Numbered from the stretch's first letter, positions 2,656 through 21,103 are shown. The stretch is DNA of 21,103 nt from an uncultured Dehalococcoidaceae bacterium (GCA_964514525.1 CAZEUJ010000007.1:1-21103), one strand, 5' to 3'. Notes: a model not told the origin generated them from the letters alone. Made by a program: numbers and translations.

Positions 2656-3642
<987 letters not shown>

Positions 3643-3645
3643 ACG

Positions 3646-6438: not shown

Positions 6439-6491
6439 CCCCCTCAAACAGATTTATTAATATAAATGGACTTTTATTTTGTTTGAGGGGG
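6439..6491. repeat. Perfect 12-bp inverted repeat with a 29-nt AT-rich loop
   Basis: CCCCCTCAAACA (6439-6450) is the exact reverse complement of TGTTTGAGGGGG (6480-6491). It sits in the convergent intergenic region. No U-tract follows it on either strand. Confidence 0.8.
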
Positions 6492-6521
6492 AAGAATAAA
6501 AAGAGGGGCTTCGCCCCTCTT
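6492..6521 (-). terminator. Rho-independent terminator downstream of epmA
   Basis: AAGAGGGGC (6501-6509) pairs with GCCCCTCTT (6513-6521), giving a 9-bp GC-rich stem. On the minus strand the stem is followed by TTTTTATTCTT. Confidence 0.7.
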
Positions 6522-6553
6522 AAACGCCCCGTTATCTTCAGGGAGTGGCCGCC

Positions 6554-6575
6554 GAGAGGGGCGCTAGCCCCTCTT
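6554..6575. repeat. Second copy of the GAGGGGC-loop-GCCCCTCTTAAA hairpin module
   Basis: AGAGGGGC (6555-6562) pairs with GCCCCTCT (6567-6574) around the loop GCTA. It is related in sequence to the hairpins at 6501-6521 and 15623-15638. It has no adjacent U-tract, so terminator function is uncertain. Confidence 0.6.
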
Positions 6576-6672
6576 AAAAATACTTACCCTTTCCAGCCAT
6601 CAATATCTGTGGTTTCTACCATTGATTCTGGCTGGAGAGGGCAGGGTGAGGTTAATACCTGTTAACAACTTT

Positions 6673-7602
6673 TCAAGCGTCATCCGCAGTGAAAGCCATA
6701 ACGTCGTCGATGGAGGCGGCGTTACAAAGCAGCATGACAAGCCGGTCGATGCCCAGAGCCACCCCGCCGCATTCGGGGAGGTGGGGCAGGGCTTTAAGGA
6801 ATTTATCCGGCATGGGCATTGCCTGGCCGCGCTCTTTTTTAATTTTTTCTACGGCTTCCCGGAAGCGTTTCTCCTGCTCTAGGGCATCTGTAAGCTCGCT
6901 GTAAGCGTTGGCAAGCTCCAGCCCGCCGATGAATACCTCAGTACGTTCGGCGACGAGGGTATTATCCGGCTTGAGGCGTGCCAGCGAGGCCATCGGCGTG
7001 GGATAGTCCACTAAAACAGTAGGCCGGGTCGGGGAAAAGGCGGGGAGCACTTTCGTGACGAAATCCACATCGAATCTCAAGGAATCAGGTTCCGCGACAG
7101 GGTCCCATCCGGCGGCTTTAAGAAAGGCGTCCCTGACCGTCACCCTGGGCCAGGGCCGCTTTAAATCTATAATCTGACCCTGGTACTCTATTTTGTTTTT
7201 ATATCCGAGGCTGCTAGCGACTGTTGTCACCATTTTTTCGATATCTGAAATGATTTGGTAATAGTCGGCCCCGGCGCGGTACCATTCCAGCATAATGAAT
7301 TCAGGATTGTGCCAGCGACCGCGCTCGCCCTTGCGGAAGCAGTGACTGAACTGGAAAATATTTTCATAGCCGGCGGCGAGCAGGCGCTTCATGTGGAGCT
7401 CAGGCGAGGCGGCGAGGAACCAGTCCTCGCTCATAAAGGGGGTAATGAATTCTTCCGGGGCGATGGCCGGGGCGCGGATGGGGGTCTCTACCTCCAGAAA
7501 ATCCTGCTCTTTGAAGAAGGCGCGGACGTGCTCGTAAATCAAGGCCCGCCGGCGCAGATTGGACTTCAGGCGGGCGAGTCGCTGAGGTTCGTCCTCAACC
7601 AT
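6673..7602 (-). CDS. epmA: EF-P--(R)-beta-lysine ligase (GenX/PoxA, truncated class II lysyl-tRNA synthetase paralog)
   Basis: 309 aa. It has no anticodon-binding domain. Class II aaRS motifs are present: FLEVETP, CFRKGERGRWHNPEFIMLEWY and GVALGIDRLVMLL. It starts 3 nt after the efp stop. Confidence 0.85.
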   Translation of the reverse strand: MVEDEPQRLARLKSNLRRRALIYEHVRAFFKEQDFLEVETPIRAPAIAPEEFITPFMSEDWFLAASPELHMKRLLAAGYENIFQFSHCFRKGERGRWHNPEFIMLEWYRAGADYYQIISDIEKMVTTVASSLGYKNKIEYQGQIIDLKRPWPRVTVRDAFLKAAGWDPVAEPDSLRFDVDFVTKVLPAFSPTRPTVLVDYPTPMASLARLKPDNTLVAERTEVFIGGLELANAYSELTDALEQEKRFREAVEKIKKERGQAMPMPDKFLKALPHLPECGGVALGIDRLVMLLCNAASIDDVMAFTADDA

Positions 7603-7605
7603 GCG

Positions 7606-8172
7606 TCACTTTCCGGTGGAGACCCGCTCGACGTAGTTGCCGGTGCGGGTGTCAATTTTAATAACGTCACCCACTTTAATGAAAGACGGGGTGTCAATGC
7701 GGTAGCCGGTTTCTACGACGGAGGACTTCATCTGGGGGGTGATGGTGGCGGTCTTGGTGGATACCTCGGTCTCGATTACCTTGAGGTCGATGGTTATGGG
7801 CAGGTTGACATCGATAGGCTCGTCGCCGTGCATCAGCATGACGACCTCCATGCCTTCTTTCAGGAAGTTCTTTTTAATGCCAAGCAGGTCTCCGGGGACA
7901 GGGTGCTGGTCGTAGGTCTTGACGTCCATGAAAATATAATTATCGCCTTCACGGTAAAGGTACTGCTCGTTCTGGGTATCAAGCCTGGCTTCATCGACCC
8001 TCTCGCCGGAGCGGTAGGTGCGGTCGATAACGCCGCCGTCGCGCATATTTTTGAGTCTGAGGCGATAGATGGAGCGCCCCTTACCGGGCTTGGTGAAATC
8101 AACATCATCAATGTTATAGAGAACGCCGTCGATGATCAGCTTGGTGTTCTTGCGTACATCCTCGATTTCCAT
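7606..8172 (-). CDS. efp: Elongation factor P family protein (lysine-type loop)
   Basis: 188 aa. The modification loop reads FTKPGKGRSIYRLRLKNM, with the Lys equivalent to E. coli K34. The C-terminus VGDVIKIDTRTGNYVERV is typical of EF-P. AAGGAGAG precedes the ATG. Confidence 0.9.
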   Translation of the reverse strand: MEIEDVRKNTKLIIDGVLYNIDDVDFTKPGKGRSIYRLRLKNMRDGGVIDRTYRSGERVDEARLDTQNEQYLYREGDNYIFMDVKTYDQHPVPGDLLGIKKNFLKEGMEVVMLMHGDEPIDVNLPITIDLKVIETEVSTKTATITPQMKSSVVETGYRIDTPSFIKVGDVIKIDTRTGNYVERVSTGK

Positions 8173-8229
8173 CTACTCTCCTTATGTATCAGGTAAAGCC
8201 CGGCCGTTTATTATATGCGCGTTTAATTT

Positions 8230-8258
8230 ATTATAACATTTTAGGAAATATTATATAA
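8230..8258 (-). promoter_or_regulatory. Possible efp promoter in the AT-rich spacer
   Basis: A minus-strand TATAAT lies at 8235-8230. The -35 is weak (TTATAT, 17-nt spacer). The whole 8200-8290 stretch is very AT-rich. Motif match only. Confidence 0.25.
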
Positions 8259-8337
8259 TATTTGACGTTTAATATTTAATACCGTATGTGGATGTGTCGG
8301 TGCATTTCAGTATCGCAACAAGATGAGCTTTAATATA

Positions 8338-8377
8338 AAGAAAAAGGGAGTAAGCCATAGATTATTTGCTTCCTCCC
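8338..8377 (-). terminator. Rho-independent terminator downstream of the bicupin genes
   Basis: On the minus strand, GGGAGGAAGC, a 12-nt loop and GCTTACTCCC pair at 9 of 10 positions. The stem is followed by TTTTTCT. Confidence 0.6.
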
Positions 8378-8407
8378 CGGCATCTTAATCGGTCTTCCCC
8401 ATAAAAA

Positions 8408-9310
8408 TCACTTACTGGTAAACTTTTGTGGTCCGCCCAGCCACGTAGTATCGTGCTCGTGGGCGAGGCAGATCGCGGTGAAGCTGTACGGTTTTTCCAC
8501 GTTTCTCGTGATTAGCGGGCAGTGGACGAGTCCTTTGGGGGCGATAACGACGGTGGGGATATTAAAGACGTGCACCTCCCGCTCCTCGCCCATCTGGATT
8601 TCTATCTCCGCCCCGAGATAATCGGGGTTTTCCGGGTCCAGCCCCACGAAGACCAGGGCTTCGTCGTTGGGATGGACATGCGGATCGCTTTCATGCCAGG
8701 GGCCGGTGCCGGTGTGGAAAGCCCAGGTGAAATTTAGTAAAAAGCCGGGGTGGTTCTTGCCGCTCCAGAACCCTATAAAATCGGCGTTGCCGCCTTTTTT
8801 GCGGTGCATGTCGCGCAGTTCCATCCTGGTAATCATCTCGCCGCATTTATTGGCCAGGATAAACGCCTTTTTTCTCTCGGTCAGCTCGGTGGTCTTGTCT
8901 TCGCCGTTGACGGAAATCGCCAGGAAACCATAAGGCTTATCGACCTTTTTCGCGGTCATCGGCAGGTGCGGCACGCCGGCCGGGATGGCGACTACCGACG
9001 GGGCGGCGATAATATGTTCTTCGGCCTCTTCGCCGAGCTCCATTACCAACTCAGCACCCAGGGTATTGGGGTTATCGTAATCGAGTCCCGTGAAGACGAA
9101 GACCTCGCCGTAAGGATGGACATGCCCGTATTTCCCGCCTACATCCCAGGGACCGACCCGGTTATGATAGCTCCACACAAAACTGACATTAAGACCTTCC
9201 AGGTCGGAGCCCTTGGGCCAGGTAATGTATTCCGGTTTGCCTTTCGCCCCGCCCGGCAGCTTGTTATAGACCAGCTTTTTAATAAAATGTCCATATTTCG
9301 TTTTCGCCAT
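8408..9310 (-). CDS. Bicupin-like protein of unknown function (paralog A)
   Basis: 300 aa with two internally repeated ~135-aa modules. Each module carries cupin metal motifs: H63-V-H65-PYG-E69...IPAGVPH115 and H211-V-H213-PND-E217...APKGLVH263. Both modules share the LGAE(L/I)...GEE...H motif. GGAGGG serves as the RBS. Confidence 0.55.
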   Translation of the reverse strand: MAKTKYGHFIKKLVYNKLPGGAKGKPEYITWPKGSDLEGLNVSFVWSYHNRVGPWDVGGKYGHVHPYGEVFVFTGLDYDNPNTLGAELVMELGEEAEEHIIAAPSVVAIPAGVPHLPMTAKKVDKPYGFLAISVNGEDKTTELTERKKAFILANKCGEMITRMELRDMHRKKGGNADFIGFWSGKNHPGFLLNFTWAFHTGTGPWHESDPHVHPNDEALVFVGLDPENPDYLGAEIEIQMGEEREVHVFNIPTVVIAPKGLVHCPLITRNVEKPYSFTAICLAHEHDTTWLGGPQKFTSK

Positions 9311-9332
9311 CGTACCCTCCTCGTTAATAAAG

Positions 9333-10232
9333 CTACTTTATGTAGCCGTCGGGTCCCTTGCCGGTATGTCCCCAGGGGCGCACCACCGCAAATATCCAGG
9401 GACTGTCCTGCTTTGTCACGATGAGCGGGCAATGGGCGTGCCCGGCGGGCTGTATGGCGACCGTGGGCGTGGTGATAACGTGTTTTTCCATGTCCTTGCC
9501 CATGTAAAGCTCGCATTCCGCCGGCAATATACTAATATCGTCGGGGTCGGCGCCCATGAAAAGCAGGAACTCGGTATAGGGATGCACATGGGGTTTATCG
9601 GGGACGGGGCCGAACCTGTAAGGCGCCCGGTTCATGCTTTCATACGACATGTGGAACTCGAAGTCCTTGCCATGGATATCCGTGATAGCGCCGTCGTGGG
9701 TATCCTGGTTGAACGGGCCGTAGTGCCAGGGGCCGTTGCGGGTAAATGCTAGGTGCTGGACATTCTCACGGTATTTAGAGCGCATGAAATCGGCCGGCTT
9801 GCCCGGTTTATCGCTCAGTTTCGCGGTTTTAGACGTCAGTTCCGGTGCCATCGAGACCGTCATAAAGATAAACCTGTCGTCCATTCTCCCGATGGTGGCC
9901 GGCATATGTGGCATGCCTTTGGGGACGGCGACCGCCGTGGCCGTGGTAATCATGTGGGTCTCTTTTTCCTCGCCGAGGGTCAACTCGACTTCGGCTCCCA
10001 GGTAGCCCTCGTCAAATGTGTCCAGCCCCATCCATATCATTACCTGGTCGGAGTCATGCACCTGCGTCTCGTAGGGCGCCATTTTACCGGCGGACCAGTA
10101 AGTCCCGTATTGAATGTGGACGTCGTAGCCGAGGAACGCTCCGTTCATCTCGGTCCCCTGCCGGGGCAAGCCCGGTCCGTAGTCTTTAAAAGAAAGAGCC
10201 TTTACCAGGTGACCGTATTTCGTTTTCGCCAT
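9333..10232 (-). CDS. Bicupin-like protein of unknown function (paralog B)
   Basis: 299 aa. It has the same MAKTKYGH N-terminus as paralog A, and the 5' 15 nt are identical. The C-module keeps H215-V-H217...E221...H265/H267. The N-module has Q57-V-H59, so the site is partly degenerate. Confidence 0.55.
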   Translation of the reverse strand: MAKTKYGHLVKALSFKDYGPGLPRQGTEMNGAFLGYDVHIQYGTYWSAGKMAPYETQVHDSDQVMIWMGLDTFDEGYLGAEVELTLGEEKETHMITTATAVAVPKGMPHMPATIGRMDDRFIFMTVSMAPELTSKTAKLSDKPGKPADFMRSKYRENVQHLAFTRNGPWHYGPFNQDTHDGAITDIHGKDFEFHMSYESMNRAPYRFGPVPDKPHVHPYTEFLLFMGADPDDISILPAECELYMGKDMEKHVITTPTVAIQPAGHAHCPLIVTKQDSPWIFAVVRPWGHTGKGPDGYIK

Positions 10233-10265
10233 TTTTCATACCCCCGTCAGCATATTTGGAACAGA

Positions 10266-11735
10266 CTAGACCAGCGCGCCACCCTCGGGTGATACGCCGT
10301 TGGGGTCGATGGCTCTCAAGAGCTTCCTCCACCATAGATGGTAATTCGATACGGCCGGTCCGATTTCGTCCTGCGGGCCCATGGTGCTGGCGAAGTAACG
10401 TTCCTTGAAAGCCCTGGCCGTCTGCTCTTTTTGCCAGGTTTCCACGGCCTTCTTGGCTTCCTCGTTCCGTGGGTCAAATTTACAGAATATTTCCGTTTTA
10501 CCCAGGTGCCCCTGCTCGACGCCCCAGCCGAAAAACGCCCCGCCGTCATCAACTATCAAGCCCTTCTTAATCAAGGGCTTCTTGGCTTCGCCGGCGCCGA
10601 TGGCCCACTTGATGGTGAGGTCGCGCTGGCCCATGATGGGAATCGAGTTGAACGCCCCGCCGGGGCGGAACGTCTCCCGGATGGAGGCGGAAATCCTGAT
10701 GCACTGGCAGAGCAAAATCCCTTCAATCTCGGGGTCTTCCACCGTCTTTAAAGACTTGCCGCCCGCTTCGCCGACTATTTTTTTAAGGACCTTCTTCTTG
10801 TAGTCGAAGTCCTCCGGGGTGTTGCCGGCGATGATGACGAAGAAGCCGGGCCCCTGCACCTCTTTGCTGAGGCGCTTGAACATTGCTTCATCTTCTTCAT
10901 TGCAGGTGGTGATATTGGCGGCGACCATGGCCGCGTTAAAACCCATCAGCTCGTAGCATATTTCGGCTTCGCCCAGCTTGAGCTCCGCCTGCCACATTTT
11001 CTCCACCGACGGGAAGCTGAAATACCGCGCCATCATGTTAGGCGGTATCTCGCTCAGGGTGTATTTCGGCGACTTCCCGGTTATCGGGAAGCTCGCGGGA
11101 CCCGGCCAGTGATAAAGCTTTACGGCGCCCTTGGTGAATACCCCCGGCGTTACGCCCGGCGGCACGGCGCTGGTAAGAATGCTCCTCAAAGAAGGACCCG
11201 GCCCGTCGCCGCAGAACCATTCGTCGGTAGAGCCCAGCGCGCCCGTCCGCACGATGTTCCCTTCAGGGGTGACCCATTCTATAGCCAGATGGTTGCGGTC
11301 GTCGCCGCTGGTGGTCTGGTCCATGTGGCCGTGGCCCCGCAACAGCGCCGAGCAGTTGGTCCCGGCCCCCTTGATGCAGAAGTTCAGGCCCCTTTTCATC
11401 AACTCGGCCTGAAGCTCCGACGAGATCACGTAAGGCTCGACCACGGCATACATGTTTTTCTCGTTGATTTCGATGATGCGGTTCATCCGGCGCAGGTCGA
11501 ACAAAAGGATTCCCTTGGGGAACATCCCGGACCAGCCCGTGCATATGGGACGGAACTGTAACTTATGCTTGTTGCAGAGTTTTACCAATGCCTGGACTTC
11601 CGCGGTGTTAGCTGGGAGGATTATGGCGGCGAACTCCGTACCGTAATACGCGGGCATTATGGCGGGGTCGTCGCAGATATTTTCCTCTCCCACCACATCT
11701 TCGAATTCCTTGTATACTTCTTTACTGAAAGCCAT
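10266..11735 (-). CDS. FAD-binding (PCMH-type, FAD_binding_4) oxidoreductase, GlcD/GlcE-like
   Basis: 489 aa. The N-terminal pattern AAIILPANTAEVQALVKLCNKHKLQF...GILLFDLRRMNRIIEINEKNMYAVVEPYVISSELQAELMKRGL matches the FAD_binding_4 layout. The usual GGGTS motif is replaced by CTGWSG. Confidence 0.7.
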   Translation of the reverse strand: MAFSKEVYKEFEDVVGEENICDDPAIMPAYYGTEFAAIILPANTAEVQALVKLCNKHKLQFRPICTGWSGMFPKGILLFDLRRMNRIIEINEKNMYAVVEPYVISSELQAELMKRGLNFCIKGAGTNCSALLRGHGHMDQTTSGDDRNHLAIEWVTPEGNIVRTGALGSTDEWFCGDGPGPSLRSILTSAVPPGVTPGVFTKGAVKLYHWPGPASFPITGKSPKYTLSEIPPNMMARYFSFPSVEKMWQAELKLGEAEICYELMGFNAAMVAANITTCNEEDEAMFKRLSKEVQGPGFFVIIAGNTPEDFDYKKKVLKKIVGEAGGKSLKTVEDPEIEGILLCQCIRISASIRETFRPGGAFNSIPIMGQRDLTIKWAIGAGEAKKPLIKKGLIVDDGGAFFGWGVEQGHLGKTEIFCKFDPRNEEAKKAVETWQKEQTARAFKERYFASTMGPQDEIGPAVSNYHLWWRKLLRAIDPNGVSPEGGALV

Positions 11736-11753
11736 GATTCATAACCCCCTTTC

Positions 11754-13019
11754 CTAAAGTGCCTTCTCGACGAGTTCGACGATATCGTATACTTTCAGGC
11801 CGCTGCCGCTGTCTTTGACGGCTTCGCTGAAGTTCTTCTCACACCAGGGACAGGCGCTCACGATGGCATCGGCGCCGGTAGACAGGGCTTCATCAATCCT
11901 CTTTTGCGCGGTCCACTTGTTGAAATCGGCGTTGGACACGTCAACGCCGCCGCCGGCCCCGCAGCACCAGGAGTATTCTTTAATCCTGGTCATTTCCGTG
12001 AGTTTTACACCGGGGATGCTCCTGAGGACGTCGCGGGGAGGTTCATAGACGCCCTGGGTGCCGCGCCGGTACGGCTTGGGCGGGTCGAAAACGAACTTAT
12101 CGCCCGGTATCTTTTTCCCCTGCCAGTGTATCCACGGCTCGCCCAGCCTGCCGAGGTAACAGGGGTCGTGGTACGTGACCGAGAGATTGACTTTCTTGTT
12201 CAACTCTAGCTTGCCTGTTTTTATTAGTTTGTCAATATATTCCGAGATATGCAGCACTTCGAGGTCGCCCTTAAGGTCGAACCTATCATAGAGCACCTTG
12301 AAGGCCTGGTAGCCGTCGGCGCAGCCCGTCACCAGCGTCTTGATGCCGGCTTTCTTAATCATCGCCATGTTCTTTCTGGCCTGCTTGAGGAAGTCGTCCT
12401 GATAACCCATCTGGTAGGCGCGACCGCCGCAGCACGTCTCGGCGTCGCCGGCGATGCCGAAATTGACGCCGCCTTTCTGTAATATCTTTACGGTGGCTTT
12501 AGCCAGCTTCTGCATGTCCTTATCGTAGCTGGTCAGGCAGCCGACGTGATAAAGGACATCCACTTTCTCTTTCAAGGCGTCCTTCAGGTCCAGTCCTGCG
12601 GCCCAGTCGCCCCGTTTGCCTTTGGCGGGCACCATCGAGCCCGTCTGGCGCATGCCGGCGATGACCTTGTCTAAGGCGGGATTGGTCTTGCCGTCCTGGA
12701 CACACCTGATCCTGAACTCGTTAATGGGCTGGAGGACCTCCATGTCCATGGCGTAATTACACGAGACGCCGCAGGCGCCGCACATCTGGCAGTTATAGAC
12801 GATATGGAGGAGCCTGTCCGTGTAGTTAAAGCCGTTCTTCAACATCGCCGTCCCGATATTTACCCTGCCGCCGCCCGAGTAGGCGTGGAAGTTAAATCTC
12901 GCGATGCTGGGGCATACGTAGGAAAACTCGGACCCCTTCACCTTCTGCATGGGGATAAATTTACAGGCCGAACACCGGCAGCACATTGCCATATCGCCTC
13001 GGTAATCTTCTAGTGCCAT
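11754..13019 (-). CDS. Fe-S oxidoreductase with two 4Fe-4S motifs and two CCG domains (GlcF/HdrD/LldE-like)
   Basis: 421 aa. Cys motifs are CCRCSACKF...CPS and CQMCGACGVSC. Two CCG signatures are present (TCCGGRAY and WCCGAGGG). Confidence 0.85.
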   Translation of the reverse strand: MALEDYRGDMAMCCRCSACKFIPMQKVKGSEFSYVCPSIARFNFHAYSGGGRVNIGTAMLKNGFNYTDRLLHIVYNCQMCGACGVSCNYAMDMEVLQPINEFRIRCVQDGKTNPALDKVIAGMRQTGSMVPAKGKRGDWAAGLDLKDALKEKVDVLYHVGCLTSYDKDMQKLAKATVKILQKGGVNFGIAGDAETCCGGRAYQMGYQDDFLKQARKNMAMIKKAGIKTLVTGCADGYQAFKVLYDRFDLKGDLEVLHISEYIDKLIKTGKLELNKKVNLSVTYHDPCYLGRLGEPWIHWQGKKIPGDKFVFDPPKPYRRGTQGVYEPPRDVLRSIPGVKLTEMTRIKEYSWCCGAGGGVDVSNADFNKWTAQKRIDEALSTGADAIVSACPWCEKNFSEAVKDSGSGLKVYDIVELVEKAL

Positions 13020-13069
13020 CTTCTCTACCTCCTGAATTTATTCAACGATGAATGTTTTTTATTCATAGT

Positions 13070-14536
13070 CTAAAAGCACACTTTCCCGGGATTCATAATA
13101 TTGTTGGGATCGAATATCTTCTTAAGCTTGGCTAAAACAGCCACGGTAGCCGCATCCCTGTTAATAATCGTTCCGGCGTTTTGGCCGTAAGGCCTGGAGA
13201 AGAACGCCCCCGCCGCCATTAAGCCCTTGACGGCCGAGGCGGACAACTCTTTGACCCGATTTGCCTCACTGGCGTTGGCAGGGTCGTAGAACAGATTGAA
13301 CTCGCAATGAACGCCGGTACCCTGAACGATGGGCTGGATGTAGACGCCCATGTCCGGGGTAGAGTAGCCGGCGTTTTCCGCCAGATCGTTCATGGCCTTG
13401 ACCTGGCCTTCGAGCTTGTCATTTATGGTTAAAAAGAAGACGTCCTCGCAGGCGCCTTTATAGCGTAGTTTCCAGTAGGGCTCGGCGGAGGGCCGCTGGA
13501 CCGCTTTTAATATTTCATTGGCGGAAATGCCGCCGGCGGCTTTAACGGCTTCCACCCCCAGACGCTGGGTGATATCGGTGATGCCTTTAATGTGAGAGCT
13601 AACGCGTTCCTCCGGTAAATATTCGTAGCCGGCGACAGTATAGAAAAGAGTCCACGGAGGCAGGGCATCCTTAAGGTTCTGGTAGCCCCTGGGCCATTTC
13701 TTCGTAAAGATGGCCGCCAGGTTGGCATTATTGAGGATAAAGCATTCGTTGACCATTCTCAGCCTTATCAGCCAGGAAGCCAGATCGAGCAGCGTGGCAG
13801 GGCTGGAGGCGCCGACTACAAACGGCTCTTCAAGGCTGGGGAGTATTTCACACCTCATCGATGCCCACGTTACGATGCCCATCGTCCCCTGCGCCCCCTG
13901 GATAAGCCGGTGCCAAGATGCCACGCCCGGCCCGTAGGGGGCTTTTTGCACGCCCCCGACGGCCCACTGTTCCTCGATGGTACCAGGCCCGGCCGCTTGC
14001 CCCGTCCTGAACTCATCTCCGGTGCCGAAAATTACCCCCGCGCAGGCCAGCGGGTCGGATATATCCCATTGATATTTGGGCATGACTACCGGCTCCCTCT
14101 CCAGCAGGCTGCCGATGACCGTCTTCGACTTTCTCGGCAGCAGCGGCATGTTGAGTCGGAGGCCTTCCTTTTCCACCGCCGGTATGAGCTCACCGAAGGT
14201 CACGCCCGGCTCGACCTCGGCCACCCGGCGCGCCCGGTCGACCAGAATAATCTTCTTCATATTACTCAAATCTACGATAACGGCCCCTCCGATGCCGGGA
14301 ACGGTGTCACCGCGGAAATGCGGGGGGCCTGAGCTTACCGGCACGAGCGGCGTCAGCGTCTCGTTGGCCAGGGCTACAATCTTCTGCACGTCGCCGGTAT
14401 TTTTTGGCTTTACGACACATACCGGCCTTATCGAATTGACGAAGCTAATATCTCTGGAATATTCATCCAGCGCCGCCGGTTCATAACTTACATTGCCGGC
14501 TCCCACAACCTTCACCAGCTTCTCCTTTACAATCAT
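13070..14536 (-). CDS. FAD-binding (PCMH-type) oxidoreductase, GlcD-like
   Basis: 488 aa. The pattern PVCVVKPKNTGDVQKIVALANETLTPLVPVSSG...GAVIVDLSNMKKIILVDRARRVAEVEPGVTFGELIPAVEKEGL matches FAD_binding_4. A FAD-oxidase C-terminal-type domain follows. AAAGGGGG serves as the RBS. Confidence 0.8.
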   Translation of the reverse strand: MIVKEKLVKVVGAGNVSYEPAALDEYSRDISFVNSIRPVCVVKPKNTGDVQKIVALANETLTPLVPVSSGPPHFRGDTVPGIGGAVIVDLSNMKKIILVDRARRVAEVEPGVTFGELIPAVEKEGLRLNMPLLPRKSKTVIGSLLEREPVVMPKYQWDISDPLACAGVIFGTGDEFRTGQAAGPGTIEEQWAVGGVQKAPYGPGVASWHRLIQGAQGTMGIVTWASMRCEILPSLEEPFVVGASSPATLLDLASWLIRLRMVNECFILNNANLAAIFTKKWPRGYQNLKDALPPWTLFYTVAGYEYLPEERVSSHIKGITDITQRLGVEAVKAAGGISANEILKAVQRPSAEPYWKLRYKGACEDVFFLTINDKLEGQVKAMNDLAENAGYSTPDMGVYIQPIVQGTGVHCEFNLFYDPANASEANRVKELSASAVKGLMAAGAFFSRPYGQNAGTIINRDAATVAVLAKLKKIFDPNNIMNPGKVCF

Positions 14537-14662
14537 GACTGCCCCCTTTCGCTTTTAGCTGGAATAGATAATCCTATCTGAAAGGACAATACCAGTATTA
14601 TAGATTCAAGTTATATTTGAAAATAAGGGTATTCAGCCGACCCCGAAATATTGTCTCACCAG

Positions 14663-14692
14663 ATAGTAATCTACTTTTACAGCCCCTGTCAA
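14663..14692 (-). promoter_or_regulatory. Sigma70-type promoter for the FAD/Fe-S/bicupin operon
   Basis: On the minus strand, TTGACA (14692-14687), an 18-nt spacer, then TACTAT (14668-14663). This leaves a leader of about 120 nt before the ATG at 14536. Confidence 0.45.
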
Positions 14693-14775
14693 ATAGCTTC
14701 CACAGAGTATTGTATTGCATCGGTTACAGAGGGGGATAAAGGAGGCGGATTTGAAATAACTTTAACCTCTCTTTT

Positions 14776-15552
14776 TCAGGGGCGGCTTCCGCCCGCCGGA
14801 GCGGAGACCTCCAGTATTTGGCCCGAAAGTTTGGAGGCAACATCCGAGACAAGGAAAGCTACGGCGTTGGCGATATCCTCGGGGGTGGTCGTTTTACCGG
14901 CCTTGGCCAGGTTATCCACAATTTCCGCCATGCGCGGGTCGCCGCCGCTTACCCGGTGGAAATTGGTAGCACCGGGGCCGGGGGCGATGATGTTGATATT
15001 GATGCCCTGAGCGCCGACCTCACCGGCGAGTGTCTTGCTGAACATGACCGTACCGGCTTTGGCGGCGACGTATACCGCGGCTCCGGCCAGTCCGGTGGGC
15101 TGGTGGGCGGCATGGGTGGAGAAATTAACGATTTTGCCGTAATGACGCTTTAACATATGCGGGAGAACGGCCTGGGTGACGTTCATCGTGCCCCGGAGAT
15201 TGATATTGATATCGATATCCCACATTTCCTGCGTCATCTCGACGAAGGGGCGAATACCGCTGGCGCGACCGGCGCAGTTCACGAGGATATCGATATGTTT
15301 AAAATGTTCGAAGGCTTTTTTAAAAGCGGCGTCGACACCGGCTTTGTCCGTGATATCGACCTTCAATGCGAGGGATTTCCTGCCCAGCGCTTTCACCGCA
15401 GCGGCGGTCTTTTGCGCGCCTGCGAAATCGATATCGGCACAAATAACATCACAGCCTTCTTCCGCCAGCTTGACGGCGATGCCCCTCCCGAAGCCAATCT
15501 GCGAGCCCGTGCCGGTTACCAGCGCTATTTTCCCCTTTAGTTTCAGGTCCAC
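14776..15552 (-). CDS. Short-chain dehydrogenase/reductase (SDR, FabG-like)
   Basis: 258 aa with a GTG start preceded by GGGAGGG. The cofactor motif is TGTGSQIGFG, NCAG is present, and the catalytic motif is YVAAK. Confidence 0.9.
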   Translation of the reverse strand: MDLKLKGKIALVTGTGSQIGFGRGIAVKLAEEGCDVICADIDFAGAQKTAAAVKALGRKSLALKVDITDKAGVDAAFKKAFEHFKHIDILVNCAGRASGIRPFVEMTQEMWDIDININLRGTMNVTQAVLPHMLKRHYGKIVNFSTHAAHQPTGLAGAAVYVAAKAGTVMFSKTLAGEVGAQGININIIAPGPGATNFHRVSGGDPRMAEIVDNLAKAGKTTTPEDIANAVAFLVSDVASKLSGQILEVSAPAGGSRP

Positions 15553-15610: not shown

Positions 15611-15640
15611 GAGAAAAAGAACAGGGGCGCAAGCCCCTCT
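15611..15640 (-). terminator. Rho-independent terminator downstream of the AAA+/RyR gene
   Basis: On the minus strand, AGGGGC, the loop TTGC and GCCCCT form the stem (15638-15623). It is followed by GTTCTTTTTCTCCC. It shares the 13-mer GCCCCTCTTAAAC with the 6501-6525 hairpin. Confidence 0.65.
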
Positions 15641-15815: not shown

Positions 15816-18485
15816 CTAACGACTGGTCGTAGTCGATTTTACTATCGTATATCCGGCTCTTGCCAGGATCTTAGGAATACTTCTGATTAACGTGCGGTCT
15901 TTTTGCCTGGCTATGTCGGATAGTGCTGACCACGGTACGAGGTCTTGGTGCTGCTTAAGCTTTTTATTGGTTTCCCTGGCAGGTTTCCAGTGGTCGGCAA
16001 GTTTCTGCGCCATCCACCGTTGATGTTCCTCTTGGGCTAATATTTCGATTTCCTTTTTTGAAAATCTACAGGGAGTCGTATCACCGCGCATCGGTATAGC
16101 GGTATATCCCACTTTTATAAGTTTGTTCTGGATATCCCAGGCGTTATTACGGTTCTGCTCCTTCTCATTTTCCGGTAATTCGGAGTAAGGCTTGAGTGAG
16201 GAATGCTCTTTCCGGTCTTGCCGTGTCACCGGTCCATAGGCCCAGCCTTTGGAACGCATATCGTCACAGAATGCTTCGTGTACCACTTCCGCGAGTTTCT
16301 CGAGGAGATCGCTATCAAGTTCCAGCCGGTGCATTATAGAGGAAAAATCGCGGCCATCGACGTGCAGACTCAGCTGTGTTTCCGATGGCAAACAGGAACG
16401 TTCGAAACTAGCCTTGCTGGCTAGCTGACTCATTGACACGATTGCTTCCATGGAGCGTACTCCATGTTTGTATTGGCTGGTTAAGAGAAAAGCGCGCAAT
16501 ACTCCCCGGTCGATATTCACGGTTCTCTTGTTGCCCTTATGGCTGATAAGCTGGGGGGCAATGCGCTCGATGATTGAACGCAGCATGATGGCTCGCCTTA
16601 TCACGTAATAAATATCCCTGGTACGCCCCGGCTCGTTTTCGCTTACCTGCCGGTTAGGGCCTAATATATTGAGAAATCCTTTAAGACGGGAGGCAAAATC
16701 CGGTAACTTAACGTCCCGGCGTTTCGTATCATCCAGGTTGGCGCCGAACGATTCCATGTCATAGCTGCTGCTGCCGGCAAAAACGAAGATGCTCCGGCCA
16801 ATAGGATGATTTATTTGCCCTTCCTGGAACTCTCCATCCTGCATGGGAGCCAGGAAATAGCGCAGCCAGCCCAGCGGCTGTTGCTGCAACTGGGTATCGA
16901 ATTCATCCCAGAAGACCAGCGGGATTTTGCCGGTTAAAGCCTTATCTCGCACCTGGTGGAAAGCATCGTACAGATTTTCAAGTCCGGCAAATTGTGACAG
17001 GTTAAAGGTCAGTGTCTCGATTCCTCCCGGCAGTACCGAATTAGCTACCTCTTTTACCGCAAACGACTTACCCGCGCCCGGCGGCCCGAACACGGCGATG
17101 GATAGAGGTGCTTTCTTGTAACCTTGACAATAATCGCGGATAAGGTTACAGATACTGTGCAGGCTCTCGATTTCCCTCCGGTCTACCGTGCGCAGGTTGC
17201 CGAATCGTCCTATCGGGACCTCGGGTAACGCAGATTCCATACCTTCTAGGACGATTTGTTCAGCCACACCCTCCAGTGAATCGGGGTTTTTATCCTCGAG
17301 GATTGTCCAGAAACCCCCATCTTTCGCTGCGGATGAAATCTTCGCCCGGGTTATGGTTGCCTGTGATGGGATTTTAATTATTGCCGTTGCCAGGCAGGTT
17401 TTATCCTCGGCAAGCACCCCGGCTATTTCCGCTACCGGAAACGCAAGTCGTATCGGTTCCTCGTCGCTGTTTACCCGACCGTATCCTTCAACATGAAGAA
17501 ATCGCATGGCTCGCGTTCCGCGCTGTATACCGCGGGCTACGTTCGGCTGCCTGGTGTTCAACATCAATTCGCGGGCTATACCCGCTGTCAGGCAGGAGTC
17601 ATAACCTATCATATATCCCATGTGGTTTTGTCCCCATTCGCCTTCCATCGCATTCGGGTCGAAGAATAGGACCGCCTCCGGCATGGACCTGGCGTTTTTC
17701 GAGAGTAAAACAACACCGGCCGTATCGAAAATAACAATAACATGGGCGCATTGTGCCAGCGTTTTAACCCGCGGATTGTTTATAAGCTCCCATACGAGGT
17801 CCTGGGCGGTACGCTCCCAGGATATCTGGCGGCTGATCTGCACCTGGCTGGCCCGCAGGTCTTCCGCCAGCATTACCACGGTGAGTCTTTCCGCATGATT
17901 CTGGACCAGATATTCCCATAGTTTACCCTGCGCTACCGGTTTAGCCATCTTGACCAGGACATGAGTACGGGCGGTATTTGTAATAATTTTGTTCCATTCA
18001 TTCGGTTGCCCCCGAAACCCGAGGTTAGCGTCGTCGATGATGACAATATCCGGTCGAGGGGATTTAACTTTACCTGTTGCGGGTTTTTCACTTAAGACGA
18101 CATTGCTCTGGGCCGGATTAAGGCCGAGGAATTCCTGCACCCGCCATACCCTGTTTAAAGACGGTTTGCTTTCGTCGAGAAAAAACGGCATCCACATGGC
18201 GTATGAATGGTGGAAACGGCTATCGATAGGGGAAAGACGCACCCGGGGCAGATTAACCTGTTTCACCACACCATCAACCTGGCCAGCTTCATGCAGTGTC
18301 TTGGCCACGGCATCGATGAGCAGGGATAATATCGCCGCGCCTCCCGGCTGGCATAATGCGGCCGTGACTTCATCCGCCGTCCATGCCCGTGCTGCACTCT
18401 TCATACGCGGCATACGGGCGATATTCCAGTCTATCGTTACGTCCCCCGTAACGACAATGGTTTTCGAATCCATCTTTTTGTCCAT
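15816..18485 (-). CDS. Multidomain protein: N-terminal ~430-aa uncharacterised (possibly PfkB/ribokinase-like) domain, classical AAA+ ATPase, and two C-terminal RyR repeat domains
   Basis: 889 aa with AAGGGGG as the RBS. Walker A is GPPGAGKS (aa 467-474, nt 17087-17064). Walker B is LVFWDEFD (aa 523-530, nt 16919-16896), followed by IFVFAGSSS. The two RyR-type repeats are LAEVVHEAFCDDMRSKGWAYGP...LKPYSELPENEKEQNRN...KVGYTAIP and ILAQEEHQRWMAQK...LVPWSALSDIARQKDR...RAGYTIVK. Confidence 0.8.
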   Translation of the reverse strand: MDKKMDSKTIVVTGDVTIDWNIARMPRMKSAARAWTADEVTAALCQPGGAAILSLLIDAVAKTLHEAGQVDGVVKQVNLPRVRLSPIDSRFHHSYAMWMPFFLDESKPSLNRVWRVQEFLGLNPAQSNVVLSEKPATGKVKSPRPDIVIIDDANLGFRGQPNEWNKIITNTARTHVLVKMAKPVAQGKLWEYLVQNHAERLTVVMLAEDLRASQVQISRQISWERTAQDLVWELINNPRVKTLAQCAHVIVIFDTAGVVLLSKNARSMPEAVLFFDPNAMEGEWGQNHMGYMIGYDSCLTAGIARELMLNTRQPNVARGIQRGTRAMRFLHVEGYGRVNSDEEPIRLAFPVAEIAGVLAEDKTCLATAIIKIPSQATITRAKISSAAKDGGFWTILEDKNPDSLEGVAEQIVLEGMESALPEVPIGRFGNLRTVDRREIESLHSICNLIRDYCQGYKKAPLSIAVFGPPGAGKSFAVKEVANSVLPGGIETLTFNLSQFAGLENLYDAFHQVRDKALTGKIPLVFWDEFDTQLQQQPLGWLRYFLAPMQDGEFQEGQINHPIGRSIFVFAGSSSYDMESFGANLDDTKRRDVKLPDFASRLKGFLNILGPNRQVSENEPGRTRDIYYVIRRAIMLRSIIERIAPQLISHKGNKRTVNIDRGVLRAFLLTSQYKHGVRSMEAIVSMSQLASKASFERSCLPSETQLSLHVDGRDFSSIMHRLELDSDLLEKLAEVVHEAFCDDMRSKGWAYGPVTRQDRKEHSSLKPYSELPENEKEQNRNNAWDIQNKLIKVGYTAIPMRGDTTPCRFSKKEIEILAQEEHQRWMAQKLADHWKPARETNKKLKQHQDLVPWSALSDIARQKDRTLIRSIPKILARAGYTIVKSTTTSR

Positions 18486-18548
18486 AGGCTTACCCCCTTT
18501 GTTCTAACCGAAAGTAGGTCAACGGGTAGCGGTACGTGGTCGGATGTG

Positions 18549-18578
18549 ATTATAGCCTTTTTACTATTGGTTTATCAA
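18549..18578 (-). promoter_or_regulatory. Sigma70-type promoter for the AAA+/RyR gene
   Basis: On the minus strand, TTGATA (18578-18573), an 18-nt spacer, then TATAAT (18554-18549). Confidence 0.45.
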
Positions 18579-18606
18579 GACCGGGATAAATTATTTTATC
18601 TTACAA

Positions 18607-18635
18607 TTGACATAATTATCTCTTCATTATATATT
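18607..18635 (+). promoter_or_regulatory. Sigma70-type promoter for the TrkA_N/RyR gene
   Basis: TTGACA (18607-18612), a 17-nt spacer, then TATATT (18630-18635). It lies about 40 nt upstream of the ATG at 18678. Confidence 0.5.
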
Positions 18636-18677
18636 TGGTGAGAAAACTTACCGACGTGTTGGAATGGACGGCAACAA

Positions 18678-20507
18678 ATGATGAATACAGAAACCAGAAA
18701 GAACACCAGCCGGATAACCGGTGACTTTCCGGACAGGCTATCCTTCTGGAAGAAACTCAAACGATTCATTGGAGACTACAAATGGCTGTTGATCGTCCTC
18801 ATGTGGATTGTGACTATAGTGCTGGGATATATCGGATTTAGCAGGTATTTTTCCGCTATAGGTGAGACACATTCCTTTTGGGATATTTTATATCGTACCC
18901 TGCAACTCTTCGTTTTGGAGTCGGGTTTTATATCGGGTTCGGTGGAGTGGGAATTTCAGGTTGCCAGGTACCTGGCACCGGCGGTCGCGGCGTATACCGC
19001 CGTGCAGGCTTTGGCCATCATTTTCCAGGAACAGCTCCGATTGTTCCGTGTGCAGTTTTTAAAGGACCATATCGTGATTTGCGGGTTGGGCCAAAAAGGC
19101 CTGCTCCTCTCCAGAGGATTCCGGGAAAGAGATGAGCAAGTAGTGGTAATCGAGAAGGATGAGGGCAACAATTTTCTGGGTCAATGCAGGGAGCTTGGTA
19201 TAATTATTTTAATAGGTGATGCCGCCGACCCGGTGCTTCTTCGTAAAGCGCGGGTAAACAAAGCCAGGTACGTTATATCAGTCTGCGGCGACGATGGTGC
19301 CAATGCCGAGGTCGCCGTCCATTCCCGCGAGCTCGTTTGGAATCGCAAAGGCAAGGCGTTATCGTGTCTGAGCCACATCTCTGATTTTCGACTCTGTAAC
19401 TTGCTTCGAGATCGAGAAATCAGACTGGGCAAACTGGATACTTTCAGGTTGGAGTTGTTCAATGTTTTTGAAAGCGGGGCCAGAATCCTCCTGGACGAAT
19501 ATCCGCCCTTCGGCAAAACGGGTGAGGAAAATATCTCTAGAATACACCTGGTTGTAGTCGGGGCAGGTCGTATGGGAGAAAGCCTGGTGGTGAATGCCGC
19601 CAGGAACTGGTGGGACTTGGGCAGGCGGGACGGTGAACGTTTGCGTATCACCATAATTGACAAAGAAGCGGTAAGAGAAAAGGAATACCTGCACCTCCGC
19701 TACCCCCAGATGGAAAAAGCATGTGAGTTAGTGCCGGTCGAAGCGGATATTCAATTTTTAGAGTCGGGGCGGGCGGATTTTCTTTTTGATGATCGCGGGA
19801 AGTGCGCGGTAACGATGGTATATGTTTGTCTGGACGATGATTCAAGTGCTCTTAGTGCCGCCTTGATGATACGTCAGAAAGTGAAGACTCTCGAAGTCCC
19901 GATTGTAATACGCATGGACCACAACGCAGGGTTGGCCACCCTTTTACGAGGAGAGGAGGACAGGTCCCGGAGTCTGTCTAATTTACATGTGTTCGGACTT
20001 TTTGACCATACCTGCACCCCGGATTTGATATCCCGGTGCACCTATGAAATTTTAGCCCGCGCTATCCATGAAAATTATATCCGAAACGAGAAGGCTAAAG
20101 GCCTTACCCCCGCTACGAATCCTTCCTTGGTTCCCTGGGGGGAACTGGGGGAAAATTTCAGGCAGTCGAACAGGCGTGCCGCAGAACACATTCGTGTCAA
20201 ACTTGATGCCATTGGGTGTGATATTACTATAACCACCGATTGGGATACGCCGCGGTTCGAATTCACGCCGAATGAAATTGAATTGATGGCACAAATGGAG
20301 CACGAAAGTTGGGTTGAAGAGAAGTCAAGCGAGGGATGGAAATATCGTCCGGCCAAGGATACGGCCAAGAAAACCAGCCCCTATCTGGTTCCCTGGAACG
20401 AGTTGCCTGAAGAGGAAAAAGATAAGGACAGAAATCAAGTCCGGGAGCTGCCGGAATTTCTCGCTAAAGCCCGTTTCCAGATTTATCGGTTAAAGAAATT
20501 GGATTAA
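18678..20507 (+). CDS. Channel-like membrane protein: 2-TM pore-like module, TrkA_N/RCK Rossmann domain, second Rossmann-like domain, and two C-terminal RyR repeat domains
   Basis: 609 aa. The N-terminal module reads TM1 WLLIVLMWIVTIVLGYIGF, then the pore-helix-like SFWDILYRTLQLFVLESG, then TM2 VARYLAPAVAAYTAVQALAIIF. The first Rossmann motif is IVICGLGQKG (nt 19083-19100 encode GLGQKG), followed by VVVIEKD...LIGDAADPVLL, which is TrkA_N-like. A second motif VVVGAGRMG is encoded at about nt 19560-19577. The RyR repeats are ILARAIHENYIRNEKAKG...LVPWGELGENFRQSNR and LMAQMEHESWVEEKSSEGWKY...LVPWNELPEEEKDKDRN... Confidence 0.8.
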   Translation: MMNTETRKNTSRITGDFPDRLSFWKKLKRFIGDYKWLLIVLMWIVTIVLGYIGFSRYFSAIGETHSFWDILYRTLQLFVLESGFISGSVEWEFQVARYLAPAVAAYTAVQALAIIFQEQLRLFRVQFLKDHIVICGLGQKGLLLSRGFRERDEQVVVIEKDEGNNFLGQCRELGIIILIGDAADPVLLRKARVNKARYVISVCGDDGANAEVAVHSRELVWNRKGKALSCLSHISDFRLCNLLRDREIRLGKLDTFRLELFNVFESGARILLDEYPPFGKTGEENISRIHLVVVGAGRMGESLVVNAARNWWDLGRRDGERLRITIIDKEAVREKEYLHLRYPQMEKACELVPVEADIQFLESGRADFLFDDRGKCAVTMVYVCLDDDSSALSAALMIRQKVKTLEVPIVIRMDHNAGLATLLRGEEDRSRSLSNLHVFGLFDHTCTPDLISRCTYEILARAIHENYIRNEKAKGLTPATNPSLVPWGELGENFRQSNRRAAEHIRVKLDAIGCDITITTDWDTPRFEFTPNEIELMAQMEHESWVEEKSSEGWKYRPAKDTAKKTSPYLVPWNELPEEEKDKDRNQVRELPEFLAKARFQIYRLKKLD

Positions 20508-20639
20508 CGGAGAATTGTTAGAATTCAGGTAAAAACTGCTATAAATGAGAGTCCAGACTATTGATATGTTCAGGGCGCATGGACTATACTCCAAGCGATA
20601 ATGAAACACTGTTCGCTAGCTTAAAAAGGCTTAACTGAG

Positions 20640-21103
20640 ATGACGCACGAAGTTTTCATCTGTTATGCCTCCCGCGATAAGGCTATTGCCGAGGCGGTCT
20701 GCACTGCGCTGGAAGCCAGACACATTAAGTGCTGGATTGCCCCGCGGGATGTAATGCCCGGCACGGAATGGGCGGAGACAATCGTTGATGCCCTTGATGG
20801 AAGTCATGCCCTCGTCCTGGTATTATCCTCCAACTCTAATGTCTCACCGCAGGTAATCAGAGAGGTGGGGAGGGCCGCCAGCAATGGTACCCCCATCATT
20901 CCGCTTCGCATTGACGATGTCGTCCCCTCTAAAGCCATGGATTATTTTGTAAGCAGCCATCAGTGGTTGGATGCCCAGACAGGACCGATAAAGAAGCATT
21001 TACCCCGCCTCGCCGGCGTTGTACAACAGATTTTGGCCCGGAAAGGTGCACCTCAGGTTACAGAGATAACGGAGGCTGAAGAAGCAAAGAAGGCTCAGGA
21101 GGC
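20640..21103 (+). CDS. TIR domain-containing protein; the C-terminal part runs off the window
   Basis: It is absent from the ORF track because it is open at the edge. Manual translation from the ATG at 20640 gives MTHEVFICYASRDKAIAEAVCTALEARHIKCWIAPRDVMPGTEWAETIVDALDGSHALVLVLSSNSNVSPQVIREVGRAASNGTPIIPLRIDD... This is the TIR_2-type pattern: FISY-like strand, W...RD..PG, VLVLS, and a conserved Glu (E75, nt 20862-20864). No stop codon occurs through 21103. An in-frame stop at 20622-20624 fixes the start. Confidence 0.8.
   Translation, partial: MTHEVFICYASRDKAIAEAVCTALEARHIKCWIAPRDVMPGTEWAETIVDALDGSHALVLVLSSNSNVSPQVIREVGRAASNGTPIIPLRIDDVVPSKAMDYFVSSHQWLDAQTGPIKKHLPRLAGVVQQILARKGAPQVTEITEAEEAKKAQE

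Follow-up and report, generated by a model that had tools for sequence, protein, structure and literature searches.

The closest described counterparts of the gene module reported here are the Thoeris systems, in which a TIR protein with a catalytic glutamate adjoins one or several effector genes whose products carry a small-molecule-binding domain on membrane-bound or enzymatic outputs, and in which gene order varies and effectors occur in combinations. The module shares these features, RyR being its putative binding domain, and occupies positions 15816-21103 of a 21,103-nucleotide stretch of DNA (hereafter the window) from an uncultured Dehalococcoidaceae bacterium (GCA_964514525.1 CAZEUJ010000007.1:1-21103). 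It comprises the gene of P1 (15816..18485, minus strand), an 889-residue protein with a predicted ribokinase/PfkB-like domain, an AAA+ ATPase of the classical clade and a tandem of RyR repeats similar to Repeat12 of the animal ryanodine receptor; the gene of P2 (18678..20507, plus strand), a 609-residue protein with a pore-like module of two transmembrane (TM) helices, two RCK/TrkA_N domains and again a tandem RyR; and the gene of P3 (20640..21103, plus strand), whose product starts with a TIR domain containing Glu75 and of which 154 residues lie inside the window before its end truncates the gene. One small domain placed on many outputs beside a ligand-making enzyme is the signature of sensor-effector systems in CBASS, type III CRISPR and Thoeris. 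The module differs from the Thoeris systems in its sensor, which is RyR (PF02026) instead of SLOG, Macro or another of the described effector folds, and in its TIR protein, which is predicted to be a long, membrane-anchored TIR_2 protein in contrast to the short ThsB. As far as the proposed reading holds, it would bring to Thoeris-like nucleotide signalling a type of sensor so far undescribed on effectors of the host.

A survey of Thoeris lists types I-XI and 29 putative types, including the validated type X, and names "SLOG and 4TM" and "ATPase" as untested putative effector categories; in its text and in parts of its supplements RyR, TrkA, an RCK channel-RyR protein or a PfkB-AAA-RyR protein are not mentioned, RyR not even where animal ryanodine receptors are discussed (10.64898/2025.12.03.692087). 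RyR is likewise unmentioned in certain conflict-system surveys from the Aravind laboratory. According to the Thoeris survey, type X (Bacillus sp. BH32), which has been validated against phage, pairs a TIR with a predicted ion-channel effector, ThsK, as does the module described here (10.64898/2025.12.03.692087). The original prediction, made from the DNA sequence of the window, had held that no named system is known to have this domain combination; the pairing of a TIR with an ion channel has already been named as type X. The type X TIRs belong to a short, type II-like cluster, and one of them showed no similarity to the window TIR in BLASTP (E = 1.8). P2, compared with ThsK by the description of the latter, may overlap with it, as P1 may with an effector of the survey. 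A tblastn search of a type X TIR against plasmids, seeking its ion-channel effector, led to type II (Macro) systems in five of the five loci inspected. The TIRs of the survey's "ATPase" category are 30-40% identical to the TIRs found here, and two homologues of them adjoin TPR-S/patatin or unannotated genes, not AAA-RyR genes.

RyR tandem and its putative ligand

The view that the RyR repeats of prokaryotes lack an assigned function, which the original prediction still expressed, is outdated by the biochemistry of phage RyR domains, which bind or cleave 2'/3' cyclic ADP-ribose (2'/3'cADPR); the domains of RyDEP and RyR Tad bind 2'cADPR, 3'cADPR and cADPR at nanomolar affinity (PMC13232231; 10.64898/2026.06.04.730250). 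RyDEP contacts its 2'/3'cADPR ligand via H75, W78, H100 and D117 (PMC13232231), and RyR Tad (Pectobacterium phage CB1 gp68) contacts 3'cADPR, 2'cADPR and cADPR via H129/W132, K147/H154 and K170/D171 (10.64898/2026.06.04.730250). RyR Tad and RyDEP (DyoEdafos gp78) have the RyR/Repeat12 fold in common with the proteins of the module and carry their contact residues at identical spacing. However, the phage proteins, which act by sequestering or cleaving the signal of the host, are homodimers of small single-repeat chains, whereas RyR in the module is a covalent C-terminal tandem on large cellular proteins, has a degenerate repeat 1 and presumably acts as a receptor. When phage genomes were searched by tblastn with the RyR tandem of P1, all matches were weak and the DyoEdafos RyDEP was not among them.

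Membership of both proteins in the RyR family was borne out by Pfam, with E = 1.2e-26 for P1 (two stretches, 93 bits) and 1.3e-17 for P2 (one stretch at 534-602, 64 bits; cut-off 27.4 in both cases), and by Foldseek matches to the two-repeat structures 6uhi, 9ls7 and 6uhe. Over 158 residues the RyR tandem of P1 shares 36% identity with that of P2 (E = 9e-27). Two tandem copies, as originally claimed for each protein, were recognised in P1 (residues 716-889; 15819..16340, minus strand), whose C-terminus matched RyR3 Repeat12 in Foldseek and whose RyR region matched RyR Repeat12 and the B. thetaiotaomicron entries 3NRT/6UAG in a phmmer search against the PDB. In the RyR tandem of P2 (residues 455-609; 20040..20504, plus strand) repeat 1 is degenerate and was missed by Pfam, yet the fold search matched the complete two-repeat Repeat12 domain.

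Animal Repeat12 (R12) is a peripheral regulatory domain of the ryanodine receptor and its natural ligand is debated. The tandems of the module are clearly homologous to it in sequence (phmmer E = 1e-17 to 1e-23) and in predicted fold (Foldseek E ~1e-8). Both form a pseudo-dimer of two repeats that is borne by a channel or channel-like protein, but in animals this is a giant six-TM Ca2+ release channel and here a small 2TM/RCK protein beside a TIR.

The contact residues of the phage proteins, which share the spacing 0, +3, +18, +25 and +41/+42 in RyDEP and RyR Tad, were mapped by aligning RyR Tad gp68 with the four RyR repeats of the window. Their equivalents in repeat 2 are H821, W824, H846, K862 and D863 in P1, all of them invariant or near-invariant, and H542, W545, K560, S567, K583 and D584 in P2, in whose family position +25 is Ser or His. 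Repeat 1 is degenerate in both proteins: that of P1 has H736/F739/H761/Q777/N778, the Asp being replaced by an invariant Asn, and that of P2 keeps only H464/Y467 and has a shortened loop. The signature H-x2-aromatic...D(+42) occurs in 75/86 AAA-RyR, 73/89 TrkA_N-RyR, 18/18 RyR-only and 11/11 RelA_SpoT-RyR proteins, compared to 12% of shuffled segments.

RyR was found fused to the channel-like protein, to PfkB-AAA, to RelA_SpoT-TPR-SLOG, to a DSP-phosphatase and to TIR, and it also stands alone; judged from these architectures it behaves like a swappable sensor domain. With the phage contact residues conserved and at least five unrelated output fusions in addition to that with TIR, it appears most plausible that the shared RyR tandem is a common ligand-binding module, which agrees with the role in signal binding that the original prediction had suggested.

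Linkage of RyR and TIR genes across genomes

The gene neighbourhoods were compared in two sets of loci, referred to by L numbers. The AAA-RyR set comprised 80 loci from one-genome-per-species contigs, while the occurrence of all three genes was counted on 84 loci. These loci stem mostly from uncultured metagenome-assembled genomes (MAGs) of Chloroflexota, Acidobacteriota, Planctomycetota, Chlorobiota, Gemmatimonadota, Actinomycetota, Pseudomonadota, Cloacimonadota and Bacillota, and of the archaeal lineages Euryarchaeota and Methanobacteriaceae; cultured strains with homologues are Chlorobium ferrooxidans DSM 13031 (L047) and Maioricimonas sp. JC845 (L023). The TrkA_N-RyR set comprised 82 loci, namely 80 from a P2-anchored metagenome scan together with L086 and L087. 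Genes for TIR and for DUF4062 were counted with hidden Markov models (HMMs) iterated on the loci themselves, and loci were regarded as well flanked if at least 5 kb were available on both sides.

Around AAA-RyR genes the density of TIR open reading frames (ORFs) declines with distance: per 100 kb there are 9.5 of them in the nearest 2.5 kb and 1.3 at 7.5-10 kb, and for DUF4062 the two corresponding values are 5.5 and 0.9. TIR or DUF4062 was present within 5 kb in 30/41 well-flanked AAA-RyR loci from more than ten phyla. In the TrkA_N-RyR set a TIR gene lies within 5 kb in 31/82 loci and in most cases follows the TrkA_N-RyR gene directly and in the same orientation, which is also the layout of the window; TIR or DUF4062 was detected in 11 of the 17 well-flanked loci among the 80 metagenome loci. 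The co-occurrence outside this genome that the original prediction had called for was thus found, TIR accompanying both RyR families in distant taxa.

In contrast, an obligate unit of three genes is not what the loci contain. AAA-RyR, TrkA_N-RyR and TIR occur together in 6/84 AAA-RyR-anchored loci (five without the window's own) and in 8/82 TrkA_N-RyR-anchored loci, which gives the full trio in at least 13 loci besides the window, and their order varies (L004, for instance, has TIR and AAA-RyR on one strand, with TIR downstream, and TrkA_N-RyR divergent from them). Each RyR protein pairs with TIR independently of the other. L086 carries a RyR-only gene, a TrkA_N-RyR gene whose product is a P2 orthologue (78% identical) and a gene for a TIR-Zn ribbon-SBP_bac_5 protein, but no AAA-RyR gene. 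With identities of 32-68% the loci are not near-identical copies of one mobile element, and the distribution is patchy over more than ten phyla with a genomic context that differs from locus to locus. A functional link between the three genes, beyond chance juxtaposition, is supported.

As the original prediction had it, the TIR gene of the window begins 132 bp past P2 on the same strand and its product has the catalytic Glu75. This residue stands within "VIREV", and the domain matches TIR_2 (3.5e-24). All of the 66 partner TIR ORFs put to Pfam proved to be TIR_2 proteins as well, at least 90% of which retain Glu75. The best PADLOC matches of the window TIR are NADase-type TIRs (SAVED_TIR 2e-8, Aga_TIR 5e-5). 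Since the window cuts the gene, the remainder of P3 and its membrane topology were deduced from the orthologous loci L086-L089, where four homologues with a TIR domain 82-87% identical to that of P3 are encoded downstream of P2 orthologues. In these orthologues of about 750-940 residues the TIR is followed by a Zn ribbon, one predicted TM helix and, on the extracytoplasmic side, SBP_bac_5, the protein of L086 having TIR at 1-123, the Zn ribbon at 290-311, the TM helix at 342-360 and SBP_bac_5 at 464-852. Beyond what was originally described, the window TIR protein is therefore probably a receptor that crosses the membrane once, with its TIR in the cytoplasm and a solute-binding domain outside it. 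Of 83 complete partner TIR proteins, 38 show the same order, with TIR at the N-terminus and exactly one TM helix predicted after it; others are cytoplasmic and contain TPR, WD40 or STAND modules, and some loci hold several TIR paralogues.

Loci without TIR often contain, next to AAA-RyR, a gene encoding DUF4062 fused to a STAND NTPase and TPR/WD40 (e.g. L033:12729-15716, L039:6153-10001, L065:13175-15202 and L008:13227-17624). The iterated DUF4062 HMM recovered 38 ORFs in 27 loci, none of them overlapping TIR matches. DUF4062 has been reported as a TIR-like NADase in 2026 preprints, and the DUF4062 enzymes characterised so far yield linear ADP-ribose (ADPR) according to a preprint. Its TIR-like nature is taken from these preprints, because a profile-profile comparison of the DUF4062 and TIR alignments gave no match (probability 0.7%).

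Several further proteins were noticed in the related loci. Directly downstream of the AAA-RyR gene, a Methanobacteriaceae MAG encodes a 660-residue protein with an N-terminal TIR_2 and a C-terminal RyR (L053:12715-14697, plus strand), presumably a fusion of signal maker and signal binder. A third class of RyR effectors with 829-877 residues, located near TrkA_N-RyR or AAA-RyR in about 10 loci, has the architecture RelA_SpoT (alarmone-synthetase or toxin-like)-TPR-SLOG(LSDAT_prok)-RyR (L150:3555-6188, L064:3448-6021, L117:3266-5755, L130:16003-18525 and about seven more); L012 encodes the same RelA_SpoT-TPR-SLOG protein without the RyR domain. A protein of 346 residues combines a dual-specificity phosphatase of the polymorphic-toxin type (Tc-R-P, Y_phosphatase3) with a C-terminal RyR (L054:7619-8659, plus strand). 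RyR-only proteins are common within the loci, as single repeats of 86-103 residues or tandems of 133-186 residues (L086:1919-2479, L089:334-894, L126:4334-4867, L044:9938-10222); they are similar to the sponge and hydrolase proteins of phages, and a role in buffering the signal is conceivable.

A domain of about 160 residues (GVTGHR...SPLAEGADR...WDG..GGT) is encoded directly downstream of AAA-RyR in about 48% of the 84 loci and occurs alone, fused to four TM helices or C-terminally on AAA-RyR itself (L025, L030, L060); examples of the separate gene are L011:7061-7651, L024:12659-13285, L003:1472-3076 and L016:12613-14388. It gave sub-threshold matches only (YpsA E = 0.003, PDB 2NX2 E = 0.2; also YAcAr and DprA), and is here called SLOG-like. 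The label "SLATT" was dropped for this gene, as the shared part is soluble and has no TM helices. Among the partners of AAA-RyR this gene is the commoner one. Its position in about half of the related loci recalls the SLOG-SLATT and "SLOG and 4TM" effectors of conflict systems with nucleotide signalling, although the SLOG assignment is sub-threshold and the window contains no copy. P1 homologues of 677-750 residues without the RyR tandem, consisting of the ribokinase-like and AAA+ parts only, were detected in Chloroflexia MAGs (L069, L078, L080, L084; anchors at about 9.9-12.0 kb). They still adjoin TIR genes, and L069, L078 and L080 have in addition a SLOG-like gene of its own next to them, which is read from the other strand.

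Output domains, gene layout and surroundings

P1 has 1,679 homologues, which among the matches listed are full length at 51-68% identity. Its AlphaFold2 model has a mean predicted local distance difference test (pLDDT) of 71 with low confidence across residues 530-608. The list of domains in the original prediction was incomplete, as it lacked an N-terminal domain of about 370 residues (residues 1-370; 17376..18485, minus strand) that matches HldA (4e8y, 4e84) in Foldseek with E ~4e-7 and a target-normalised TM-score of ~0.5. It is assigned a ribokinase/PfkB-like fold and has an invariant GG motif (G48 G49). The AAA+ ATPase, at residues 440-715 (16341..17168, minus strand; Pfam AAA 4e-6), is as intact as had been stated: K473 of the Walker A motif GPPGAGKS as well as D527 and E528 of the Walker B motif VFWDEFD are invariant in 24/24 P1 sequences. 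This region shows weak sequence matches to Cdc48/p97 D1/D2.

For P2, with 646 homologues, the AlphaFold2 model has a mean pLDDT of 82. Its best Foldseek match is the full-length GsuK channel (4gx0, 4gx5, 4gx2; E ~1e-10, ~540 aligned columns), followed by TrkA, KtrA, MthK and RyR3 Repeat12 (9ls7, 6uhb). Based on the model and hydropathy, residues 23-125 (18744..19052, plus strand) comprise TM1 (23-61), a pore-helix-like helix (67-76), a conserved loop and TM2 (91-125); the loop reads TLQLFVLESG (TLQLFxLESG in the family), and Y72, Q76 and L77 are conserved in the pore region. Two Rossmann-type RCK domains follow at residues 130-445 (19065..20012, plus strand; Pfam TrkA_N 2.5e-18 at 132-219). 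They match the RCK domain of GsuK, TrkA and KtrA in Foldseek and contain the GxGxxG motifs G136-L-G-Q-K-G141 and G295-A-G-R-M-G300, of which G136, G138, G141, G295 and G300 are invariant. Thus, the architecture of a 2TM pore-like module with TrkA_N/RCK was correctly recognised in the original prediction, except that there are two RCK domains and not one. On the basis of fold and topology P2 is inferred to be a channel. Like GsuK, MthK and Kch it would have a 2TM pore and two RCK domains with GxGxxG sites per subunit, the whole-chain fold being that of GsuK; it differs from them in the additional C-terminal RyR tandem.

The genes of P1 and P2 are divergent, as originally described, and separated by a spacer of 192 bp with 61.5% A+T (18486..18677). 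A consensus scan placed two sigma70-like sites back to back in it, TTGATA-18-TATAAT on the minus strand (18578..18549) and TTGACA-17-TATATT on the plus strand (18607..18635), each with 11/12 consensus matches. A further promoter-like site, TTGATA-18-TATACT (20561..20590, plus strand), lies 50 bp 5' of the TIR start codon as a pattern match only. These promoter calls are merely suggestive, because the 5.6-kb region contains 10 such sites compared to 5.9 +/- 2.3 in shuffled sequence. About 180 bp downstream of the P1 stop codon, the scan revealed a terminator-like GC-rich hairpin with a T run (AGGGGCTTGCGCCCCT + GTTCTTTTTC; 15623..15638, minus strand), likewise a pattern match only.

The G+C content of the module (15816-21103) is 0.503 compared to 0.560 in window positions 1-15552, which is compatible with acquisition by horizontal transfer; neither tRNA genes nor an integrase were seen in the window. 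The flank of the module consists of metabolic genes, among them a 2-oxoacid:ferredoxin oxidoreductase, a MoxR-DUF58-DUF4129 triad, EpmA with EF-P, and FAD/CCG oxidoreductases. The triad of MoxR (AAA_3), DUF58 and a DUF4129 membrane protein is located at 2656-6379 (plus strand), and the EpmA-like class II tRNA-synthetase paralogue with EF-P at 6673-8172 on the opposite, minus strand; a 313-residue ORF antisense to the latter genes (7255-8196, plus strand) is probably spurious. Two tandem paralogous ORFs of about 300 residues (8408-9310 and 9333-10232, both minus strand) start with MAKTKYGH, contain an internally duplicated HVHPY...LGAE...GEE...H motif and had no Pfam match at E <= 1e-5.

Proposed relay and competing explanations

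It seems somewhat probable to us that the module functions as a Thoeris-like relay, in which several effectors detect the product of the TIR protein through their RyR domains. For the identity of the signal, its binding by RyR, the opening of the channel and the biological role we infer the following course of events. A trigger would activate the single-pass TIR receptor, and its TIR domain would turn NAD+ into an ADP-ribose-derived signal, e.g. a cADPR isomer or a related molecule, which would bind to the C-terminal tandem RyR (Repeat12-like) domains of P1 and P2. In P2, ligand binding would be relayed via the RCK gating ring, the non-canonical 2TM pore would open and ion gradients would dissipate. 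In P1, it would switch on the AAA+ ATPase coupled to the ribokinase-like domain, and the output may be ATP consumption or target remodelling.

A number of observations weigh against this relay or parts of it. The direct biochemistry of RyR ligands comes from phage proteins and none from host RyR proteins, and as RyR3 Repeat12 binds ATP and ADP, the ligand of RyR need not be a TIR product. In P2 repeat 2 a Ser replaces the phosphate-contacting His, and in about a quarter of the well-flanked AAA-RyR loci neither TIR nor DUF4062 lies within 5 kb. With regard to the outputs, Pfam PfkB did not match the N-terminal domain of P1 and the canonical catalytic motif DTxGAGD was not recognisable when the alignment was read for the P1 family consensus. 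The pore-like region of P2 lacks the TVGYG K+ selectivity filter, and its membrane part matched neither Ion_trans_2 in Pfam nor any solved channel pore by sequence, for which reason the term channel refers to fold and topology. PADLOC 2.0 called no system in the module, as the original prediction had expected; with its models P2 had no match, P1 matched only mad8 at E = 0.006 and the TIR matched ThsB only at E = 0.007-0.01. Among the other neighbours of the loci about 10/148 match any PADLOC model, without clear enrichment, the remaining ones being heterogeneous housekeeping genes, and the flank in the window is metabolic. The abortive-infection or defence role originally proposed is therefore not supported by these neighbourhoods. 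A role in conflict or abortive infection may still be the most likely one.

The same TIR-RyR relay could instead serve ordinary transmembrane signal transduction and not immunity: the receptor would sense an extracellular molecule, and a NAD-derived messenger would gate the cation channel and the ATPase, comparable to the control of K+ transport by c-di-AMP. The TIR-Zn ribbon-SBP_bac_5 architecture of the closest TIR orthologues, the frequency of partner TIRs with exactly one TM helix, the position of the loci amid housekeeping genes outside defence islands and the resemblance of P2 to a regulated RCK channel more than to a crude pore would all fit such a function. We nevertheless regard it as unlikely in view of the conflict components in the network (DUF4062 NADase-STAND-TPR/WD40, RelA_SpoT toxin-like proteins, SLOG-4TM and the polymorphic-toxin phosphatase), the patchy spread over more than ten phyla in variable contexts and the several TIR paralogues of some loci.

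Distinctly less probable is the assumption that no relay exists. RyR would then be a sensor of ATP/ADP or NAD+ levels and TIR and DUF4062 plain NAD+-depleting effectors, which co-occur through a shared stress response in which channel and ATPase react to metabolic collapse. In structures of human RyR3 Repeat12 the homologous pocket is occupied by AMP-PCP, ADP and ATP (6uhh, 9ls7, 9l9b), structures of GsuK, which P2 matches best, contain bound NAD and ADP (4gx2, 4gx1), and this explanation would also accommodate the linear ADPR made by the characterised DUF4062 enzymes and the NADase-type PADLOC matches of the window TIR. However, the residues conserved in the module are those by which the phage proteins contact gcADPR at its terminal ribose and its phosphates, including the Asp and the His of the ribose site, and the tight, often operonic linkage as well as the TIR-RyR fusion fit an enzyme-receptor pair and would be needless for an energy sensor.

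It is still less likely that the RyR domains destroy or buffer the signal, as a glycosidase of the RyDEP kind or as a sponge, so that P1, P2 and the RyR-only proteins would set the threshold of TIR signalling or end it. The catalytic dyad of RyDEP (H75/D117) corresponds to H821/D863 in P1 repeat 2 and H542/D584 in P2 repeat 2, and RyR-only proteins of 86-186 residues are frequent, one of them being encoded directly upstream of the P2 orthologue in L086. The dyad is likewise kept by non-catalytic sponge homologues (PMC13232231; 10.64898/2026.06.04.730250), and the His/Asp pair consequently does not predict catalysis. Furthermore, the fusion to large outputs (channel, AAA+, RelA_SpoT) follows the pattern of sensor-effector proteins, and many loci have no other candidate effector.

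Finally, a fortuitous adjacency of a housekeeping K+ channel (P2), an unrelated ATPase (P1) and an independent TIR element, which might be suggested by the housekeeping flank of the window and by the annotation of some P2 homologues as "voltage-gated potassium channel Kch" by the Joint Genome Institute, is hardly credible given a co-occurrence that recurs in different phyla, weakens with distance and appears in varying gene orders, the homologous RyR tandem shared by P1 and P2, the existence of a TIR-RyR fusion and the missing K+ selectivity filter of P2.

If, as the Thoeris-like relay implies, the RyR tandem is the receptor of a TIR product, it would be a new sensor domain for immune signalling by TIR/NAD-derived molecules, and the P1 family with its 1,679 matches, which is without a function at present, would gain one. 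At least three new classes of effectors would be added, the RCK channel, the PfkB-AAA+ ATPase and the RelA_SpoT-SLOG protein, and a likely host origin would be provided for the phage RyR counter-defence proteins described in 2026. Apart from the relay, the TIR-TM-solute-binding architecture suggests that transmembrane TIR receptors exist in bacteria.

Whether Repeat12 binds cADPR-type messengers has long been debated in animal Ca2+ signalling. A tentative and rather doubtful extension of the proposed relay is that the module is the prokaryotic counterpart, possibly the antecedent, of the animal axis of cADPR and ryanodine receptor, with a membrane-spanning TIR receptor that has an extracytoplasmic ligand-binding domain and whose cyclic-ADPR-type messenger directly gates a channel via Repeat12. 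If this were true, Repeat12 would be an ancestral cADPR receptor module, and the source of the phage RyR sponges and hydrolases would be explained. A TIR beside a Repeat12-bearing channel may in any case offer a simple bacterial system in which to address the question of Repeat12 and cADPR messengers.

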